A stretch of 12,610 nucleotides of DNA from a virus (Duplodnaviria > Heunggongvirae > Uroviricota > Caudoviricetes): IMG/VR virus record IMGVR_UViG_2630968712_000015; one strand, 5' to 3'. Shown here in pieces: positions 1 through 12,610 of this stretch (its first letter is position 1; each line of letters starts with the position of its first letter). Both the position numbers and the translations under genes were made by a program. A model generated the notes under the pieces. That model ran no database searches and was not told the origin of the DNA. It worked only from the letters and a program-made list of their open reading frames with translations.

Positions 1-60
1 ATGAGGTTTGGGTACATTGCTTTGGGTACACCCCCTATTCAAAGTTTGGATATTCGCAAA

Positions 61-1320
61 ATGCCAAAACTAACAGACATGCAGATCCGCGCATGGATTA
101 AGAGCGGAGAGCGATTCGAGGGGCGGGCAGACGGTAACGGTTTATACCTACGTTACCGTGAAGCCGACAAAACCCCCACATGGAGATTCCGCTATAAACT
201 CGCAGGGAAGTCCCGCGCCATGCTAATTGGTTCGTATAGCGAGCTATCACTATCAAAGGCCAGAGAGACAGCCAAAGAGCTATCGGCTCGCGTTGCGCTG
301 GGCTATGACGTTGCAGGAGAGAAGCAGAAGCACAAAACCGAAGCACTGGCGAAGATGGAAGCAGAGAAGAACGCTATGCGCGTTTCAGAGCTTGCCGCTG
401 AATACTTTGAGCGTCAGATCCTCCCGCGCTGGAAGCACCCCGATATACTCCGCCGCCGTATCGACAAAGATATAAACCCCTGCATTGGCAGCATGAAGGT
501 AGAGGACGTGAAACCGCGCCATATCGATGACATGCTGAAAGGTATTGTTGACCGTGGAGCGCCGACCATAGCAACGGACGTGCTGAGATGGACGCGCCGC
601 ATATTCGACTACGGAATCAAACGGCACGCGCTAGAGATTAACCCCTGTTCAGCCTTTGAGGTGGCAGACGCCGGAGGGAAAGAAGCTGCCCGTGACCGCT
701 GGTTAACCCGCGATGAGTTAATCCAGCTATTCAAAGCCATGCGCACGGCTAAGGGATTCAGTCGCCAGAACGAAATCACGTTCAAATTACTGTTAGCGTT
801 ATGCGTCCGCAAAATGGAATTATGCGCCGCACGATGGGAAGAGTTTGATTTAGATGGTGCGGTATGGCATTTGCCGGAAGAACGCAGCAAAAACGGAGAC
901 CCTATTGATATACCTCTACCTTCCCCAGCCGTTGAATGGTTGAGAGAGCTACACACCTTTTCATGTAATAGCGCATGGGTGCTTCCGGCCAGGAAGATGC
1001 AAAACAGAATGATCCCACATATTCAGGAAAGCACTTTACCCGTAGCACTGGCTAAGGTTCGCGCCGAAATGCCGGATGTGCCTAATTTCACGATTCACGA
1101 CTTTCGACGCACCGCACGTACTCATTTAGCAGCGTTGGGTGTTGATCCTGTTGTGGCGGAACGATGCCTCAATCATCGCATTAAGGGCGTAGAGGGGATT
1201 TATAACCGCCATCAGTATTTTGATGAGCGTAAAGCAGCACTGGCACAGTGGGCTGATCTGCTAGTGGCACTGGAAAGCGGAAAAGACTACAACGTAACGC
1301 CTCTCAGAAGGGCGAACTAA
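61..1320 (+). CDS. int: Tyrosine recombinase / site-specific integrase, P4 family. The ORF is open from nt 1 at the window edge; the likely start is ATG 61 (MPKLTDMQIR...).
   Basis: N-terminus LTDxxIR...GLYL...WRFRY typical of P4-type integrases; C-terminal catalytic region with HDFRRTARTHL and GIYNRHQYFDERK (His-x-x-Arg and catalytic Tyr). Length 419 aa from ATG 61. Confidence 0.9.
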   Translation: MPKLTDMQIRAWIKSGERFEGRADGNGLYLRYREADKTPTWRFRYKLAGKSRAMLIGSYSELSLSKARETAKELSARVALGYDVAGEKQKHKTEALAKMEAEKNAMRVSELAAEYFERQILPRWKHPDILRRRIDKDINPCIGSMKVEDVKPRHIDDMLKGIVDRGAPTIATDVLRWTRRIFDYGIKRHALEINPCSAFEVADAGGKEAARDRWLTRDELIQLFKAMRTAKGFSRQNEITFKLLLALCVRKMELCAARWEEFDLDGAVWHLPEERSKNGDPIDIPLPSPAVEWLRELHTFSCNSAWVLPARKMQNRMIPHIQESTLPVALAKVRAEMPDVPNFTIHDFRRTARTHLAALGVDPVVAERCLNHRIKGVEGIYNRHQYFDERKAALAQWADLLVALESGKDYNVTPLRRAN

Positions 1321-1415
1321 CTGAATAGATTGAGCCTAGCTCGACGGGGCGAAAAGCGGGAAGCCTTACCGCCTGGCTCAATCACAAAATAAGGCGCAGC
1401 GTAAAAGGTGACGCA

Positions 1416-1715
1416 ATGAAAAAATTACCACCCGCCCCTTTTTTCAGGCTTAACAGAGCAGCCGAATTATTAGAAATAGATATTGATGATCTTTTGATTA
1501 TGGCGGCGGCAGAATCTATATATTTGAGCGCGTACCTTTGCGGCTACGACGGCACATTACATAGCATCGCGAGTCTTTACCGCAATTGCTCTTTATTCCC
1601 AGACGTCAAAGAAGACTGCTTATTACTTGCCGACATAATCACTGAAGTAGAGGACGAAAAAAGCTTTAAGGCAGGCGTTGTAAATCATATAGATTGCCAT
1701 GTGCTTGGGCGGTAA
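1416..1715 (+). pseudogene. 5' fragment of an unknown gene interrupted by IS1. Native codons end at 1710; the TAA at 1713-1715 is supplied by the IS1 terminal repeat.
   Basis: ORF with SD-like AAAGGTG upstream of ATG 1416. The reading frame continues exactly into 2488..3041 once IS1 and one copy of the 9-bp duplication are removed (…NHIDCHVLG|LWHVNASY…). Confidence 0.65.
1702..1710. repeat. IS1 target-site duplication, left copy (TGCTTGGGC)
   Basis: Identical 9-mer TGCTTGGGC immediately flanks both ends of the IS1 (1702-1710 and 2479-2487). Confidence 0.9.
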
Positions 1716-1725
1716 TGACTCCAAC

Positions 1726-2229
1726 TTACTGATAGTGTTTTATGTTCAGATAATGCCCGATGACCTTGTCATGCAGCTCCACCGATTTTGAGAACGACAG
1801 TGACTTCCGTCCCAGCCTTGCCAGATGTTGTCTCAGATTCAGATTATGTCGCTCAATGCGCTGAGTGTAACGCTTGCTGATAACGTGCAGCTTTCCCTTC
1901 AGGCGTGATTCATACAGCGGCCAGCCATCCGTCATCCATACCACGACCTCAAAGGCCGACAGCAGGCTCAGAAGACGCTCCAGTGTGGCCAGAGTGCGTT
2001 CACCGAAGACGTGCGCCACAACCGTCCTCCGTATCCTGTCATACGCGTAAAACAGCCAGCGCTGACGTGATTTAGCACCGACGTAGCCCCACTGTTCGTC
2101 CATTTCAGCGCAGACAATCACATCACTGCCCGGTTGTATGCGCGAGGTTACCGACTGCGGCCTGAGTTTTTTAAGTGACGTAAAACCGTGTTGAGGCCAA
2201 CGCCCATAATGCGTGCACTGGCGCGACAT
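1726..2229 (-). CDS. insB: IS1 transposase InsB (expressed as an InsAB' fusion by -1 frameshift)
   Basis: 167-aa product ...[58 protein letters not shown]... matches IS1 InsB as recalled. Confidence 0.9.
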
Positions 2230-2423
2230 CCGACGCCATTCATGGCCATATCAATGATTTTCTGGTGCGTACCGGGCTGAGAGGCGGTGTAAGTGAACTG
2301 TAGTTGCCATGTTTTACGGCAATGAGAGCAGAGATAGCGCTGATGTCCGGCAGTGCTTTTGCCGTTACGCACCACGCCTTCAGTAGCGGAGCAGGAAGGA
2401 CATCTGATGGAAATGGAAGCCAC
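2148..2423 (-). CDS. insA: IS1 InsA (zinc-finger/HTH transposition inhibitor)
   Basis: 91-aa product [68 protein letters not shown]... is a near-identical IS1 InsA isoform. Confidence 0.9.
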
Positions 2424-2478
2424 GCAAGCACCTTAAAATCACCATCATACACTAAATCAGTAAGTTGGCAGCATTACC

Positions 2479-2487
2479 TGCTTGGGC
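2479..2487. repeat. IS1 target-site duplication, right copy (TGCTTGGGC)
   Basis: Exact 9-bp copy of 1702-1710, directly abutting the IS1 right terminal repeat. Confidence 0.9.
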
Positions 2488-3041
2488 TATGGCATGTTAA
2501 CGCCTCCTATATACTCGACATCGCAGGGCTTGATTCTATTGACACTCCCGCACGCATATTCAGCCCCGCACACAGAAAAAGAGAACTAGACGTAAGTGCG
2601 AATTATTATTTTTTTCTCGATTATACAAAACATGCCTTCCACGAAATATCCGTAGAGGATTTGTACATAACAAGGCCGTGGGTTGAATATATCGGCGAAT
2701 GCATGGACAAAAACCAGCCCATATACAGCCCCGAAACTCGCATAAACTTACAAGCTCTTTATGAGGATGTTAAAAACGTTGAGCACGGAAACAGAGAGCG
2801 CCACAGGCAAAAGCGCGAAATTTGCCTCTTGGCGTTGATTTATGTGAAGCGGCACTACCCAGAAGAGTGTAAAGGGAAGAACGGGAAGGAAACCAACGAA
2901 GCATGGGCGAACGCCACAATAAACCACTGGGCGCTTTTGGGGGGCGGCTATGATGAGCCATCCATAGATTACCTGAAGAAACTCATAGCCGACGCAGACA
3001 GAACACCGGAAGAACGCACCACGGCAGGGAAAAAAAGGTGA
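2488..3041 (+). pseudogene. 3' fragment of the IS1-interrupted gene; the reconstructed intact product is about 282 aa of unknown function
   Basis: Frame continuity with 1416..1710 after removing IS1 and one TSD copy. The upstream part of the six-frame ORF 2304..3041 is read-through across the IS1 end, not native coding sequence. Confidence 0.65.
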
Positions 3042-3069
3042 TAGTAAATTTTACTATCACGATAGTAAA
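3040..3069. promoter_or_regulatory. Operator-like site: three alternating 9-bp half-sites GATAGTAAA / TTTACTATC / GATAGTAAA, about 85 bp upstream of alpA
   Basis: Perfect 19-bp palindrome 3040-3058 (GATAGTAAA-T-TTTACTATC) followed by a third direct copy of GATAGTAAA at 3061-3069, in the intergenic region before the AlpA-like gene. Confidence 0.4.
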
Positions 3070-3153
3070 AAATACGATCATTCCTTTTTGAGCGTGCACG
3101 CCATTAAATCCCCGTAACGAAGCAACAACTATCGCTAAGAGGTTACGGGAATC

Positions 3154-3357
3154 ATGAACATCGACACTATCCCTACAAAAGGCTATATCAGACGCTTCCG
3201 CCTGGCTGAATTGCTGGGCGTTAGTGTATCCACCATCGACCGTAAAGTAAGAAACGGTTCACTACCACGTCCGGTAAAGCTGGGAGAAAAAATAACTGCG
3301 TTTGATGCGGTTGAGATTCACAACTGGCTGGCAGAACGCCGCGGGAAGGTGGCCTGA
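3154..3357 (+). CDS. alpA: AlpA/Vis-family small HTH transcriptional regulator (prophage excisionase-like)
   Basis: 67 aa; ...FRLAELLGVSVSTIDRKVRNGSLPRPVKLGEKITAFDAVEIHNWL... matches the AlpA-family signature; SD AAGAGG upstream of the ATG; sits beside the integrase as in P4-like elements. Confidence 0.85.
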   Translation: MNIDTIPTKGYIRRFRLAELLGVSVSTIDRKVRNGSLPRPVKLGEKITAFDAVEIHNWLAERRGKVA

Positions 3358-4786: not shown

Positions 4787-5480
4787 ACCTGCCGCCCAGA
4801 AAGAAGCCTTTAATCTGGCTGGCCTGTTAACAAATGTTAACCCTTACAACCTTATAAAACCTGATATTGATACCGCAGCGCCCGGAGTTCCGTTACCAGT
4901 ACGCGAGGCGCTTACCCTCAACAAAAAGATGGTGAGCCGTGCACAGGAAAAACTCTTAAAGGGTTACGGTTTTATCTGGTATGACCACCTAGCAGAGAAA
5001 AGCTGTTATAGTTCAAGCGTTGCTGCAAAATCAGCAACCGGGCGTGGAAACCCGAACACACTCAGGGCGACACAGACGCCGAAAGCGTTTTTTTTTGTGT
5101 CCGATCACTACGCACATCAAATCAGCGGCCTAGTCCGTACTGTATCAATGGTGGCGTTAGTGGGGCTACGTTCGCGTAGGCCGGTTTCCTTTGTGTCCGG
5201 TATTTCCACCCCTGCTAACGTCACCGCCATTTCAGAGCGTGGAAACTCAGGCGGTGACTCCTTAAACACAAAGGAGGCTGCCGCTATGCTGGCTACTACC
5301 CCTACCCAAAAACCGCAATTTATCTGGATTATCGCCGCAGTTCGCCGCGATTGCCCGACAATTACCGCCAAAATTCATCATATTGCTGCCGAGTCTGAAC
5401 GCGATGCTCGCCGTTCTCTGGTGCGCGATCACGTCTGCTTTTTTGCTGGTCGTATCCGCATGGAGGTGGCACATGATTAA
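4773..5480 (+). CDS. Hypothetical ORF; coding status uncertain. Possible GTG start 4773 (ATG alternatives at 4752 or 4725); a strong internal SD+ATG at 5286 suggests the real gene may be only 5286..5480 (64 aa).
   Basis: GGAGGTG at 4762-4768 precedes GTG 4773; the first ~75 codons look protein-like, but 5018-5285 is hairpin-rich and uses rare codons (CTA, AGG). AAGGAGG at 5271-5277 sits 8 nt before in-frame ATG 5286. Confidence 0.35.
   Translation: MILNEPAAQKEAFNLAGLLTNVNPYNLIKPDIDTAAPGVPLPVREALTLNKKMVSRAQEKLLKGYGFIWYDHLAEKSCYSSSVAAKSATGRGNPNTLRATQTPKAFFFVSDHYAHQISGLVRTVSMVALVGLRSRRPVSFVSGISTPANVTAISERGNSGGDSLNTKEAAAMLATTPTQKPQFIWIIAAVRRDCPTITAKIHHIAAESERDARRSLVRDHVCFFAGRIRMEVAHD
5075..5096 (+). 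terminator. Possible intrinsic terminator or attenuator: short GC stem-loop followed by a run of nine T
   Basis: GACGC-CGAAA-GCGTT followed by T9 (5088-5096). The stem is only 4-5 bp, so this is weak. Confidence 0.25.
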
Positions 5481-6959: not shown

Positions 6960-7301
6960 ATGATTACTAAAAATTTCCGACTGAATGCGCTGGCGAATAA
7001 GTATGCGGCAGCACTGTATAACCACATTACTTCCACCAGCGGCGGGGACTATTTCATGATTGATGCGGACGGCCTCGCCGTCCGTGTGGAAATCGTCAAT
7101 GGAGTAAAAGGCGTTCGCAGCCTGATTGATAGCTACGCACTGGCAGCCATGAAAGTGCGCTACCCGCAGTGGGAAATCGTGGGGATCGAGCTTCTTGATC
7201 GTTGCGTCACTAAGGACGGATTGACTGACATCGGGCGCGAGATATGGCAAAGCATGATTAATGATATGGGCGCGACCGTGGCAGGAGGCAACCATGCGTA
7301 A
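6960..7301 (+). CDS. Hypothetical protein (113 aa) immediately upstream of the primase, translationally coupled to it
   Basis: GAGGGG SD before ATG 6960; stop overlaps the primase start (ATGCGTAA). Confidence 0.55.
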   Translation: MITKNFRLNALANKYAAALYNHITSTSGGDYFMIDADGLAVRVEIVNGVKGVRSLIDSYALAAMKVRYPQWEIVGIELLDRCVTKDGLTDIGREIWQSMINDMGATVAGGNHA

Positions 7302-10053
7302 TATCGACCTTATCCGCGAAGTGACCAGCGCCGCAGCAGGGCGCTGGCCTTATGTGCTGGCTGAATTGTCTATCGACGTGCCTGATTCATCGCGCCGCCA
7401 TTCTCCATGCCCTGCATGTGGTGGAAAAGACCGTTTCAGATTCGACGACAACGGGCGCGGTAGCTTTATCTGCAACCAGTGTGGCGCTGGTGACGGGCTG
7501 GATTTAATCAAGCGGGTAAACAACTGCGACACCACGGAGGCGGCACAGCTTGCCGCTGACGTGCTGGGTATTGATTACCGGGCAGCGCAAACCGACCCGG
7601 CGGCAGCGAGCCATAGAAGAGAGCAACTGGAAGCTGACCGCCAGCAGCGTGAGCAGGAGCGCCAGAAACAGGCAGCAGAGGACGCAGAGCAGCGAAGGGC
7701 TACGTTTGCCCATCTGTATGCCGGAATGCGCCAGAGTGCCACACAGGGCGAATCTGATTACCTGCAATCAAAAGGGCTGACCGGGTTTAACTATCCGGTT
7801 ATGCCGGATGGTTCGTTATTGCTGGAGCTGGTGGACGAATCCGGCGCAGTGGCAGCAGCGCAAACCATTACACCGCAGGGAGAGAAGCGACTCCTGACAG
7901 GTTCAGCAAAGCGCGGGGCATATCACGCCGTAAACGCGCCAGAATCGCCGCAGAGCGTTTTAATTGCCGAGGGGCTGGCGACGGCCCTTTCAGTTCACCT
8001 GATGCGCCCGGACGCGCTGGCAGTGGCAGCAATTGACGCGGGCAACCTGCTACCCGTTGCCGAAGTGATGCGCCGGATATATCCCGCCACGCAGATTATC
8101 ATTGCCGCAGATAACGACCACCAGCAGGACGACCAGGCGAACACGGGCAAAGATGCCGCAGAGAAAGCCGCCTTATCCGTGGCTGGCTGGGTGGCGCTGC
8201 CGCCGACAGACTACAAAGCCGACTGGGACGACTACCGCCAGCAAAACGGGCTGGAAGTCGCTACGGCTGCGTTTAACGATTCGATGTACCAGATTCAAGG
8301 GGAAGCCGTGAAACCGCGATTGCAAGCCATTGAGGGCGGTAAAACTGACCATCCAGAGAAAGATCCACTAAAACCCCACATTGAGAGCCGCAAAGATAGC
8401 GTTTTCTGGGTAACGCCGAAGGTGGACAAGGAAAGCGGGGAGATCGTCAACGCTGAAAGCTGGTTATGTTCCCCGTTGGAGGTTATCGGCACGGGACGCG
8501 ACGACAAAGATCAGTATCTTATTATCTCATGGCTGGCATTCGGTGCAGGCATACCGACAACAGCGGCTATCCCGCTGGCTGATATTGGCGAGCGTGAAGG
8601 CTGGCGCACCCTGAAAGCTGGTGGGGTTAACGTCACGACCAAAAGCAGTTTACGGGCGATCCTTGCCGACTGGCTACAGCGGAGCGGCTCGCGTGAATTG
8701 TGGCGCGTTGCTCATGCTACAGGCTGGCAGTGCGGGGCATACATCATGCCGGACGGGGAAATCATCGGCACACCTGAGCGGCCTGTTTTGTTCAGCGGGC
8801 GCAGTTCAGCCGCTGCCGGGTATACCGTAGCAGGAACGCCGGAAAGCTGGCGCAACAGTGTCGCGCGGCTGGCATACGGCAACTACGCGATGATGACAGG
8901 CATTGCCGCAGCACTGGCAGCGCCATTAATCGGGGTGGCAGAGCGTGACGGATTCGGGATTCATTTTTATGAGCAATCGAGCGCCGGGAAAACAACCACG
9001 CAGAACGTGGCTAGCAGTCTATACGGGAACCCTGATGCCTTGCGCCTGACGTGGTACGGGACGGCGCTGGGGATGATAAACGAGGCCGCCGCCCACAATG
9101 ACGGACTGATGCCGCTGGATGAAGTCGGACAGGGCGCAGACCCGATAAGCGTTTCTCAGTCTGCCTATGCCCTGTTTAACGGCGTAGGGAAATTGCAGGG
9201 CGCGAAAGAAGGCGGAAATCGGGATCTAAAACGCTGGCGTACCGTGGCAATCAGCACCGGGGAAATGGATTTAGAAACGTTCATTGCCTCCGCAGGACGC
9301 AAGACAAAAGCGGGGCAACTGGTGCGCCTGCTGAATATCCCGTTAAGTAAGGCGGTGCGCTTTCATGAGCACCAGACAGGGAAAGACCATGCAGACGCAT
9401 TAAAATCCGCGTGGCAGAGCAATCACGGCGCTGCCGGGCGGGAGTGGATCAGATGGCTTGCAGGCCACCAGCAGCAGGCCATTGATACCGTTCGTGACTG
9501 TGAAGCCCGCTGGCGCAGTCTTATTCCTGCCGACTATGGGGAACAGGTTCACCGTGTAGGGGCAAGGTTCGCCATTCTGGAGGCTGCTTTACTGCTGGGT
9601 GGCGTGGTTACTGGCTGGGATGATCAAACGTGCCGTGATGCGATACAGCACAGCTACAATGCGTGGTTGCGTGAGTTCGGCACGGGGAACAAAGAGCACC
9701 AGCAGATTATTGAGCAGACGGAGGCGTTTTTGAATGCCTATGGGCTGAGTCGATTCGCGCCGCTGGGTTATGACCCGCGCGATTTACCCATCCGTGATTT
9801 AGCCGGGTACAGGAAGAAGGGGAACCACGACGGCGACCCGATAATTTTCTACACCTTCCCGGCAGCGTTTGAGCAGGAGATTGCAAAGGGCTTCAATACC
9901 AAACAGTTTGCCGAAGTTCTAAAGAATGCAGGAATGCTTACACCACCAACGAGCGGGCGAGGCTATCAGGGGCGAGTAAGGGAGGATGGGCGACAGATTC
10001 GCGTCTATGTACTCAATTTCATGGCAGAGGAAAGCAGCCAGCCAGAAGAATAA
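7294..10053 (+). CDS. Primase-helicase (P4 alpha-like replication protein): N-terminal primase zinc ribbon, Toprim domain, C-terminal P-loop NTPase/helicase domain
   Basis: Perfect AGGAGG SD before ATG 7294; CPACGGKDRFRFDDNGRGSFICNQCG zinc ribbon; Toprim-like AEGLATALS...IIIAADNDH; Walker A SSAGKTT and Walker B LMPLDEVG; 919 aa. Confidence 0.9.
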   Translation: MRNIDLIREVTSAAAGRWPYVLAELSIDVPDSSRRHSPCPACGGKDRFRFDDNGRGSFICNQCGAGDGLDLIKRVNNCDTTEAAQLAADVLGIDYRAAQTDPAAASHRREQLEADRQQREQERQKQAAEDAEQRRATFAHLYAGMRQSATQGESDYLQSKGLTGFNYPVMPDGSLLLELVDESGAVAAAQTITPQGEKRLLTGSAKRGAYHAVNAPESPQSVLIAEGLATALSVHLMRPDALAVAAIDAGNLLPVAEVMRRIYPATQIIIAADNDHQQDDQANTGKDAAEKAALSVAGWVALPPTDYKADWDDYRQQNGLEVATAAFNDSMYQIQGEAVKPRLQAIEGGKTDHPEKDPLKPHIESRKDSVFWVTPKVDKESGEIVNAESWLCSPLEVIGTGRDDKDQYLIISWLAFGAGIPTTAAIPLADIGEREGWRTLKAGGVNVTTKSSLRAILADWLQRSGSRELWRVAHATGWQCGAYIMPDGEIIGTPERPVLFSGRSSAAAGYTVAGTPESWRNSVARLAYGNYAMMTGIAAALAAPLIGVAERDGFGIHFYEQSSAGKTTTQNVASSLYGNPDALRLTWYGTALGMINEAAAHNDGLMPLDEVGQGADPISVSQSAYALFNGVGKLQGAKEGGNRDLKRWRTVAISTGEMDLETFIASAGRKTKAGQLVRLLNIPLSKAVRFHEHQTGKDHADALKSAWQSNHGAAGREWIRWLAGHQQQAIDTVRDCEARWRSLIPADYGEQVHRVGARFAILEAALLLGGVVTGWDDQTCRDAIQHSYNAWLREFGTGNKEHQQIIEQTEAFLNAYGLSRFAPLGYDPRDLPIRDLAGYRKKGNHDGDPIIFYTFPAAFEQEIAKGFNTKQFAEVLKNAGMLTPPTSGRGYQGRVREDGRQIRVYVLNFMAEESSQPEE

Positions 10054-10080
10054 TTATTTCTTCACATGCGTAGTTTTAGT

Positions 10081-10254
10081 GTTGTCTCGGTTGTCTTTGT
10101 TGTCTCAATTTGTAATTGAGATTGATTTATAAGGATTTTATTTTAATTTCTGAGACAACACCGAGACAACATTTAGCCATTTTGAGACAACAGGGCGAAA
10201 GTGTGTTTTTAGTCTGGCAGGCAGTGAGACAACATTTATGCCGGGTGAGACAAC
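10081..10254. repeat. Iteron array: three inverted GTTGTCTC/T copies at 9-bp spacing, an AT-rich spacer, then five direct TGAGACAACA copies phased at 11/21/42/21 bp; putative replication origin or cis replication region
   Basis: GTTGTCTC at 10081, GTTGTCTT at 10090, GTTGTCTC at 10099; AT-rich 10107-10150; GAGACAAC at 10152, 10163, 10184, 10226, 10247; located directly 3' of the primase-helicase gene. Confidence 0.6.
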
Positions 10255-10343
10255 ACTATTTTTGCTTACTATGAAAAAAAATCGGCAGGTGTCCCACATT
10301 AAGAAATCGTCATTAGCAAAACTAATAATCCAGTGAGGGGAAA

Positions 10344-10788: not shown

Positions 10789-11340
10789 ATGAGTACGCAA
10801 CCCATCATTATTGAGTTCGGCAGCTATCGCTGGCCCAGACATCTTGCAATACATGAAGCAGGTCATGCGATAGCCGCATGGTTTTTCGGCATACAGGAGG
10901 TAGAAATTGCGTTATCGGGTAATAACCGAGTGGCAAAAACCTACCTTAGCGGCGATGTTGATGAATGTGGAGCTGTCGCGGTATGGCACGCCAACTATCC
11001 ACGGAATGTGGCTGAGGTTAAGTCTTACACCCTCTCGAATGATGACACCAGGTTACGTCTGATAGACCAGGTATGCCGGGCTATGGTTATCTCTCTGGCT
11101 GGTATCGTCGCGCAATCACGCTATACGGGGGATGATATTAACGCACTGATGGAAACGTCCGGGAAAGCAGACATGAAAAATGTTCGTGATTTATCAGAGG
11201 TATACCGGGTGGCTGGTGGGGAGGATGCTGATATACAGAGAATATCCCTTTCCCGTGCTGAGGCGCTGATTGCCCTGAAATGGTGGGATGTAGACTGGCC
11301 CCCTGAATCTCCAGACAACCAGTATCACTTAAATAAGTGA
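10789..11340 (+). CDS. Stand-alone FtsH-like (peptidase M41-type) zinc metalloprotease-domain protein; the native 3' end is replaced by IS2 from nt 11291 (last 16 codons and the stop are IS2-encoded)
   Basis: True start ATG 10789 after the ssb stop (the six-frame ORF start at 10711 lies inside ssb). [13 protein letters not shown] matches the FtsH HEAGH zinc-binding motif, with downstream regions paralleling the FtsH protease domain; no AAA+ domain upstream. Confidence 0.55.
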
Positions 11341-11381: not shown

Positions 11382-11747
11382 ATGATTGATGTCTTAGGGC
11401 CGGAGAAACGCAGACGGCGTACCACACAGGAAAAGATCGCAATTGTTCAGCAGAGCTTTGAACCGGGGATGACGGTCTCCCTCGTTGCCCGGCAACATGG
11501 TGTAGCAGCCAGCCAGTTATTTCTCTGGCGTAAGCAATACCAGGAAGGAAGTCTTACTGCTGTGGCCGCCGGAGAACAGGTTGTTCCTGCCTCTGAACTT
11601 GCTGCCGCCATGAAGCAGATTAAAGAACTCCAGCGCCTGCTCGGCAAGAAAACGATGGAAAATGAACTCCTCAAAGAAGCCGTTGAATATGGACGGGCAA
11701 AAAAGTGGATAGCGCACGCGCCCTTATTGCCCGGGGATGGGGAGTAA
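11382..11747 (+). CDS. insC: IS2 InsC (OrfA, HTH transposase component), 121 aa from ATG 11382
   Basis: [56 protein letters not shown]... matches IS2 OrfA; GGAG SD upstream. The six-frame track start at 11337 is a GTG inside the IS2 terminal repeat. Confidence 0.9.
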
Positions 11748-12610
11748 GCTTAGTCAGCCGTTGTCTCCGGGTGTCGCGTGCGCAGTTGCACGTCATTCTC
11801 AGACGAACCGATGACTGGATGGATGGCCGCCGCAGTCGTCACACTGATGATACGGATGTGCTTCTCCGTATACACCATGTTATCGGAGAGCTGCCCACGT
11901 ATGGTTATCGTCGGGTATGGGCGCTGCTTCGCAGACAGGCAGAACTTGATGGTATGCCTGCGATCAATGCCAAACGTGTTTACCGGATCATGCGCCAGAA
12001 TGCCCTGTTGCTTGAGCGAAAACCTGCTGTACCACCATCGAAACGGGCACATACAGGCAGAGTGGCCGTGAAAGAAAGCAATCAGCGATGATGCTCTGAC
12101 GGGTTCGAGTTCTGCTGTGATAACGGAGAGAGACTGCGTGTCACGTTCGCGCTGGACTGCTGTGATCGTGAGGCACTGCACTGGGCGGTGACTACCGGCG
12201 GCTTCAACAGTGAAACAGTACAGGACGTCATGCTGGGAGCGGTGGAACGCCGCTTCGGCAACGATCTTCCGTCGTCTCCAGTGGAGTGGCTGACGGATAA
12301 TGGTTCATGCTACCGGGCTAATGAAACACGCCAGTTCGCCCGGATGTTGGGACTTGAACCGAAGAACACGGCGGTGCGGAGTCCGGAGAGTAACGGAATA
12401 GCAGAGAGCTTCGTGAAAACGATAAAGCGTGACTACATCAGTATCATGCCCAAACCAGACGGGTTAACGGCAGCAAAGAACCTTGCAGAGGCGTTCGAGC
12501 ATTATAACGAATGGCATCCGCATAGTGCGCTGGGTTATCGCTCGCCACGGGAATATCTGCGGCAGCGGGCTTGTAATGGGTTAAGTGATAACAGATGTCT
12601 GGAAATATAG
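11705..12610 (+). pseudogene. insD: IS2 InsD (OrfB, DDE transposase catalytic domain) interrupted by an in-frame TGA at 12089-12091 where a Trp codon is expected
   Basis: The two six-frame ORFs 11705..12091 and 12188..12610 are in the same frame with no other stop between them; [25 protein letters not shown] versus ESNQRWCSDGFEF in IS2 InsD as recalled. Confidence 0.75.

Follow-up and report, generated by a model that had tools for sequence, protein, structure and literature searches.

Between the integrase gene (int) and alpA of the viral stretch IMGVR_UViG_2630968712_000015 lies an open reading frame (ORF) interrupted by the insertion sequence (IS) IS1. Which gene was disrupted here, and what does its intact form do? 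The complete stretch of 12,610 nucleotides (nt) is referred to as the window and the interrupted frame as gene X; related loci bear L numbers and proteins P numbers. The IS1 split itself is ordinary, and the interest rests in the intact gene family, an undescribed one. It holds a single position beside the master regulator of widespread satellites, is swapped between elements as a cassette, and its sequence diverges much more rapidly than that of the adjacent genes.

The interrupted gene and its intact alleles

IS1 (1711..2478, minus strand) is 768 bp long and displays the usual features of this element. It has imperfect terminal inverted repeats of about 23 bp, with GGTAATGACTCCAACTTACTGAT at one end and GGTAATGCTGCCAACTTACTGAT (reverse complement) at the other. 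Its two frames are insA (2151-2423, minus strand; Pfam Zn_ribbon_InsA and HTH_Tnp_IS1, E 6e-20 and 5e-30) and insB, coding for the DDE transposase (1729-2229, minus strand; Pfam DDE_Tnp_IS1, E 1e-74). The element is enclosed by a 9-bp target-site duplication, TGCTTGGGC, present at 1702..1710 and 2479..2487, so that the junctions read CCATG-TGCTTGGGC/GGTAATGACTCC...IS1...GCATTACC/TGCTTGGGC-TATGGC.

The 5' part of gene X (1416..1710, plus strand) comprises codons 1-98 and the first base of codon 99. It runs on into IS1 as far as a stop at 1715, which gives a product of 99 amino acids (aa). The 3' part (2488..3041, plus strand) contains 184 codons and the TGA stop, including a conserved C-terminal domain (approximately residues 196-282). 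Joined, both parts make 849 nt, i.e. 282 codons and a stop, with zero internal stops. The coordinates, the arithmetic of the split and the in-frame 282-codon join given in an earlier note on this DNA are exact.

Uninterrupted forms of the gene are readily found. P0172 ("MULTISPECIES: hypothetical protein [Shigella]", 729 contigs) shows no difference to repaired X over 282 aa. A word-indexed search of 5.8 billion proteins retrieved P0001, which has 282 aa and a single substitution, together with a C-terminal 186-aa fragment of X annotated in Shigella boydii. The contig encoding P0001 (L003) shares 99.8% identity with the repaired window across a gap-free alignment of 3836 nt. It contains the empty site GCCATG-TGCTTGGGC-TATGGC with one copy of TGCTTGGGC. 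Contiguous homologues of 281 aa occupy the same slot in Escherichia coli S43 and 042. Since P0172 is identical and L003 contiguous, the two halves belong to one gene, as the earlier note had proposed; neither a junction unmatched by contiguous homologues nor an origin of the halves from different genes was encountered.

The 99-aa truncated product is identical to a catalogued protein, P0200 (WP_000735990.1, Shigella boydii, 267 contigs). The identical intact protein, the empty site and this catalogued product together indicate that the IS1 allele became fixed in an S. boydii lineage. It is thus nearly certain that the window carries a dead copy of a genuine 282-aa gene, produced by simple IS1 transposition in that lineage.

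Was the gene hit because it was costly, as had been suggested? The split allele occurs only in IS-rich S. boydii records, the intact identical allele is common in Shigella, and Shigella flexneri is named among the members of related X clusters. The genus is known for IS expansion, and the island contains a second IS. In view of the abundant intact allele, the second IS and this expansion, neutral decay of a defective island is the parsimonious explanation of the insertion, which is no evidence of cost; that suggestion is therefore left unsupported.

A replaceable cassette between int and alpA

Analysis of genomic contexts revealed the order int, X, alpA in every context fetched, those of distant members (E 3e-24 to 6e-6) included. 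This concerns E. coli S43, 042, ETEC1749, 600029 and 723_010814, Shigella, Enterobacter hormaechei, Salmonella enterica, Pectobacterium, Tatumella and five metagenomic contigs with distant X members. The order is kept even where the primase is of D5/Pox_D5 type or where the integrase has no central domain. The X family is restricted to this position in satellites of Enterobacterales that resemble P4 or phage-inducible chromosomal islands (PICIs).

Further, divergence of X was compared with that of its neighbours. At related loci, amino acid identity to the window is 84-97% for the integrase and 55-99% for AlpA, and 21-56% for X. Synonymous divergence (dS) and the ratio of nonsynonymous to synonymous divergence (dN/dS) were determined between the window and E. 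coli S43. For whole X, dS is 1.29 and dN/dS 0.26, to be compared with 0.52 and 0.09 for int, 0.29 and 0.05 for alpA and 0.26 and 0.18 for the next gene, orf143. Within X, the N-terminus (residues 1-45) gives dS 0.90 and dN/dS 0.30, the middle (46-195) 1.32 and 0.40, and the C-terminus (196-282) 1.57 and 0.08. Overall, dS of X is about 1.3-1.4 versus 0.26-0.52 in the flanks, and dN/dS of X ranges from 0.07 to 0.40, with 0.07-0.08 in the C-terminal part. Gene X is thus under purifying selection, even though divergence among its alleles greatly exceeds that of the genes on either side. An old, selected allele in younger flanks points to cassette exchange. It is nearly certain that X is a replaceable cassette, with its left edge at the start codon and its right edge about 45 nt before alpA.

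The integrase is present in 373 of 5,426 complete E. coli genomes, only 38 of which contain a DNA-level relative of this X allele. The contents of the slot were typed in a spread sample of E. coli elements with this integrase. The X family was found in the window, L001, L002, L014, L025 and L026. A family of 293 aa takes its place in L015 (3935-4816), L023 (4014-4895), L024 and L029, and one of 216 aa in L027 (3914-4564), L028 and L030 (3909-4559). Both alternative occupants sit beside near-identical integrases. The 293-aa family bears at most a faint N-terminal resemblance to X (hhalign probability 3%; hmmsearch --max E 1e-4) and was treated as separate; no relationship of the 216-aa family to X was detectable either.

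In EcCICFT073, int is directly followed by alpA and the slot contains no gene at all. This island was characterised experimentally and is induced, excised and transferred (PMC6092414). Because the slot varies and an island without a slot gene completes the satellite cycle, slot content does not belong to the core machinery. The earlier note had placed the gene in a variable cargo slot. The variability holds, as the three families with the same integrase demonstrate, but X is not arbitrary cargo: in all contexts examined its family is seen solely here, and its start lies 20 nt after a conserved structured RNA leader.

Edges of the cassette

The left edge is marked by RNA structure. The int-alpA RNA (Rfam RF02996) matches full-length at 1329..1395 on the plus strand (60.6 bits against a gathering threshold of 35.8, E 2.6e-11) and ends 20 nt before the X start codon (ATG 1416). 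The same motif precedes the slot gene by about 20 nt in 10 of the 14 related loci, irrespective of the family in the slot. Copies were located in L001 (5914-5980), L009 (5914-5979), L013 (5916-5980), L014 (3817-3883), L015 (3849-3914), L017 (1388-1453), L019 (3982-4045), L023 (3929-3995) and L026 (3917-3983). Double compensatory changes affect 7 of its 17 pairs, and the outer stem is fully re-coded in L023. The 293-aa family has this leader, and the 216-aa family, which overlaps the int stop codon, is without it. The motif was not found in EcCICFT073, which has no slot gene.

The intergenic sequence between int and the slot gene is near-identical among loci up to the ATG, and homology breaks there regardless of the slot family. 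Immediately upstream, a hairpin GCGT-AAAAGGTG-ACGC (1399..1414, plus strand) ends one base before ATG 1416. Its four-pair stem co-varies (ATGC/GCAT in L009 and L011, ACGT/ACGT in L013, AGCG/CGCT in L023), and it probably presents the ribosome-binding site contained in its loop. Rfam types RF02996 as a small RNA gene, whereas here it precedes the start codon of a variable slot gene. Its end about 20 nt before that codon, together with the homology break, suggests that, instead of being a free small RNA, the int-alpA RNA may serve as a leader acting in cis or as the terminator of int.

The right edge contains palindromes. The non-coding 3' end of the cassette (3030..3089, plus strand) can fold as RNA with -19.3 kcal/mol (z -4.5) into a single long hairpin between an A-run and a T-run. 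A perfect palindrome, GTGATAGTAAA-T-TTTACTATCAC (3038-3060), overlaps the X stop codon. The half-site GATAGTAAA occurs three times at 3040-3069, its third copy at 3061-3069, and all its other near-matches in the 12.6 kb have a mismatch. Type-A loci share this design of two tandem AT-rich palindromes built from one half-site with centres about 21 bp apart; the equivalents are GATAATAAA/GACAATAAA in L001 and GATACTAAA/GATATTAAT in L004. The palindromes are absent from L014, the AlpA of which is 99% identical to that of the window. About 65 nt after the X stop thus belong to the cassette, varying with cassette type and not with alpA. Type-B loci have a GC hairpin and a U-run at the same position. 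Every cassette type has a hairpin after the stop codon, and a terminator-like site was called on the minus strand at the X 3' end. Judged by its sequence, 3030..3089 is a putative terminator or a putative set of operators.

The cassette types become homologous again about 45 nt before alpA, where a conserved inverted repeat, CCCGTAAC-N23-GTTACGGG (3108-3152, plus strand), is located. This repeat comes to within a few bases of the alpA start codon, encloses the likely alpA ribosome-binding site and is conserved in 12 of 13 loci. Variants CCCCATAAC/GTTATGGGG, CCCCTAAC/GTTAGGGG and CTTGTAAC/GTTACGAG are compensated, three of the seven pairs being compensatory. The repeat could act as an RNA structure controlling alpA translation or as a site for a dimeric protein.

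Protein family and predicted structure

A profile search of 1.84 billion representatives retrieved 136 clusters (50% identity) at E<=1e-3, 40 of them at E<=1e-10. Nearly all members have 260-350 aa, and every named one is annotated as "hypothetical". Named hosts are Escherichia, Shigella, Salmonella, Enterobacter, Citrobacter, Klebsiella, Serratia, Pectobacterium, Buttiauxella, Tatumella, Rosenbergiella and Phytobacter. A literature search by the accession numbers of the proteins yielded no mention, and a one-genome-per-species scan for related loci no confirmed relative. X represents an undescribed family, an unannotated protein in hundreds of genomes of Shigella, E. coli, Salmonella, Enterobacter and Pectobacterium. 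A profile search against sequences of the Protein Data Bank gave a single match (E 0.028), judged spurious.

In alignments the N-terminus is conserved as P..(F/Y).(R/I)..RAA..L.....DLL......I.L. The middle is variable, with G.A.GLW and DL(Y/W)I(S/T) as anchors, and the C-terminus is again conserved, H(G)N..R....RE...-YP(D/E)EC-...W, in two flavours. An AlphaFold model was constructed from a 95-sequence alignment and replaced one from five sequences that was too poor (predicted local distance difference test, pLDDT, 60). The new model has a pLDDT of 80.7 (above 85 for residues 1-50, about 98 for 200-275) and a predicted template modelling score of 0.63; its sole disordered part is an insertion at residues 54-85. 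According to the model, X would begin with a winged helix of MerR/excisionase type, continue with a beta-rich middle that is variable, and end in a conserved domain built only of helices.

The winged helix, shared in fold by MerR proteins, excisionases and AlpA, is predicted at residues ~9-50 as strand-helix-helix-hairpin. Best structural matches of this part are TipAL (2vz4), the GIsul2 excisionase (8c3t) and Pukovnik Xis (4j2n). At the sequence level, Pfam HTH_17 matched one of 60 X members (E 0.005), which does not establish similarity to HTH_17/AlpA. Alignment of the X family with AlpA by hhalign was in register and not significant (probability 0.95%, E 0.057).

Possible functions of gene X

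What might such a protein do? We tentatively favour the view that X is an accessory DNA-binding protein in phage-satellite conflict, serving anti-phage interference or helper discrimination. X would be made while the island is resident. Its variable middle would give specificity, and its conserved C-terminus would contact a conserved partner or hold effector activity. The protein would be dispensable for the basic satellite life cycle, and the terminator would insulate its gene from alpA.

A role in conflict is suggested by the variation of the slot among near-identical elements, by the ancient alleles and by the reported placement of immunity functions in PICIs. Accessory and immune genes are reported for the PICI 5' end, and immune systems for the 5' or 3' end (PMC11364771, citing Fillol-Salom et al. 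2022). As in the 5' variable region of Gram-negative PICIs outlined there, X follows int and precedes alpA, slot content varies and the core life cycle is independent of it. In contrast to the PICI 5' immune genes, X has no homology to catalogued defence proteins. In contrast to typical hotspot cargo, the X family is seen nowhere else and shares the RNA leader and the start-codon junction with its replacements. Loci with such traits have repeatedly proved to encode anti-phage or helper-specificity functions. If X encodes such a function, it would be a new satellite-borne system and may explain the orphan int-alpA RNA.

Several results weigh against this assignment. Scans of X, 60-95 family members and the alternative slot genes with Pfam, PHROGs, NCBIfam and PADLOC gave nothing significant, in agreement with the earlier note, which had recognised no motif in the protein. 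In PADLOC-DB 2.0 the best match of X is PDC-M48B (E 0.016, not significant), and 95 family members have no match in common. The alternative 293-aa and 216-aa slot genes are equally unannotated and without PADLOC match. An association with known defence markers, which the note had proposed to check, was not found. A tblastn search of X against 50,697 phage records detected no relative, and Foldseek comparison of the X model with viral structures nothing below E 1. No structural match was obtained for the C-terminal domain, and for this reason no effector chemistry can be named. Since the sequence upstream of X yielded no sigma-70-like promoter, it is an assumption that the gene is expressed in the resident island. 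Finally, a single-slot family beside a master regulator also fits a regulator. By its leader, boundaries and pattern of divergence, the X family is a reasonable experimental candidate; a claim of a new system is not supported.

Ranked next, and doubtful rather than negligible, is the view that X is an immunity-like regulator, a repressor or sensor. It would act on the type-specific palindromes and keep alpA off until a helper product engages the variable middle. The predicted N-terminal winged helix agrees with this, and so do the non-coding ~65 nt after the stop, which travel with the cassette; their palindromes are absent from L014 despite 99% AlpA identity. Protein sites, unlike terminators, would be expected to employ a single half-site repeatedly, as the two palindromes do. 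With conserved ends, a variable middle and alleles much older than their flanks, X resembles immunity regions, and the family is never seen apart from alpA. Lambdoid phages, with their swappable repressor-operator modules, would then provide a functional analogue.

Stl repressors of Staphylococcus aureus pathogenicity islands offer another parallel, by analogy only: like X, they are encoded next to int, have an N-terminal DNA-binding domain and diverge extremely between islands. There is no sequence relationship, however, and X is co-oriented with int and alpA whereas Stl is divergently transcribed. Moreover, Gram-negative islands are described as activator-controlled through alpA, and a well-studied one has no such gene. 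EcCICFT073 is helper-inducible through alpA without a gene of this kind (PMC6092414).

A P1/P4-type C4 antisense-RNA immunity is already present in the element, and some E. coli elements hold unrelated slot proteins before the same alpA, both of which argue against a regulator. The same is true for the type-B GC hairpin with its U-run and for the long hairpin of the window with its A- and T-runs, which suits a terminator. Stability of the IS1-null island in S. boydii, which losing a master repressor should have put at risk, is a weak argument in the same direction, the island being otherwise decayed.

A broader and rather unlikely proposal combines both edges. The int-alpA interval would be a dedicated exchange site where the RNA leader and the ribosome-binding hairpin drive whichever ORF is swapped in at the start codon. 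X would be a satellite-specific sensor-regulator, with a variable middle that recognises products of helper phages and a winged helix that binds the palindromes upstream of alpA. If true, such a sensor-regulator would be the missing link for helper switch-on of this Gram-negative island lineage, and the int-alpA RNA would have to be reclassified as a leader acting in cis, no longer as a free small RNA.

Very unlikely is a function of X as accessory factor of recombination, whether as a directionality factor similar to excisionases or as an architectural partner for the integrase. X lies directly downstream of int on the same strand, and its N-terminal fold resembles excisionases (8c3t, 4j2n). 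On the contrary, the integrases are 84-97% identical where X is only 21-56% identical, and this lack of co-variation makes a role as accessory of the integrase improbable. The same integrase also occurs with unrelated slot genes and, in EcCICFT073, without any. Its 282 aa and sizeable conserved C-terminal domain also make X unlike the known directionality factors. The usual candidate for this task is the downstream AlpA/Vis-type protein (PMC6092414, PMC11773190).

That X is no gene, or two unrelated fragments in frame by chance, is suggested by nothing but missing annotation and is ruled out by the identity of P0172, found on hundreds of contigs, and the empty site of L003, in line with full-length homologues across genera, purifying selection and a confident structure prediction.

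Two uncharacterised genes similarly lie between integrase and alpA, namely yfjH of E. coli K-12 CP4-57 and EcCIMP1_002. The product of the latter has about 10% of the size of UvrB, and no phenotype was found for it (PMC11773190). YfjH (318 aa, encoded on the opposite strand) was tried as a relative of X and rejected as unrelated, with hmmsearch E 0.08 and a negative score.

Organization of the island

The window contains, in this order, int, split gene X, alpA, a 143-aa ORF and genes for an AntA antirepressor, an Ash-family protein, a primase and a single-stranded DNA-binding protein (SSB). The tyrosine integrase gene (1..1320, plus strand) matches Pfam Arm-DNA-bind_3, Phage_int_M and Phage_integrase. 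The open frame extends back to position 1 (439 aa), whereas annotation of most relatives begins with the ATG at 61 (419 aa). The alpA-family regulator gene (3154..3357, plus strand; Pfam Phage_AlpA, E 2e-8) directly follows the cassette on its 3' side. The primase, with Zn-ribbon, Toprim and DUF927, is encoded at 7261-10053 in the same orientation as int and alpA.

Between the primase and SSB genes, five direct copies of the iteron GAGACAACA are located at 10148-10255 with spacings of 11, 21, 42 and 21 bp, and this region presumably is the replication origin. Inverted copies, TGTTGTCTC, were noticed at about 10080-10105 (region 10060-10260). Co-oriented int, alpA and primase/replicase genes with a nearby iteron origin are the gene set of PICI-type islands.

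Rfam matches above threshold comprise the a1/b1 targets of C4 RNA (5006-5058), isrK (5019-5095) and C4 antisense RNA (5144-5231, plus strand). All fall within the Ash/Icd-like region, and the same trio recurs in L001, L004, L014 and L015. It indicates an antisense-RNA immunity circuit of P1/P4 type in an alpA-type island. By its gene content, the element is an int-alpA-primase satellite of Gram-negative PICI type with P1/P4-like RNA immunity. Helper-dependent induction, excision and packaging were examined for related islands (PMC6092414, PMC11773190).

The second IS, of the IS3 family, extends from ~11296 to the window end at 12610, and its orfA (11382-11744) matches Pfam HTH_Tnp_1. By its ends, with a start near 11296, we take it to resemble IS2. 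With this element at the window end, the right part of the island is missing from the window. An ORF from 10789, which has a HEAGH metalloprotease-like motif and no Pfam match, had its 3' end removed by the same IS3-family element. Related loci lie immediately downstream of yicC, and most of those with full context have their satellite inserted next to this gene.

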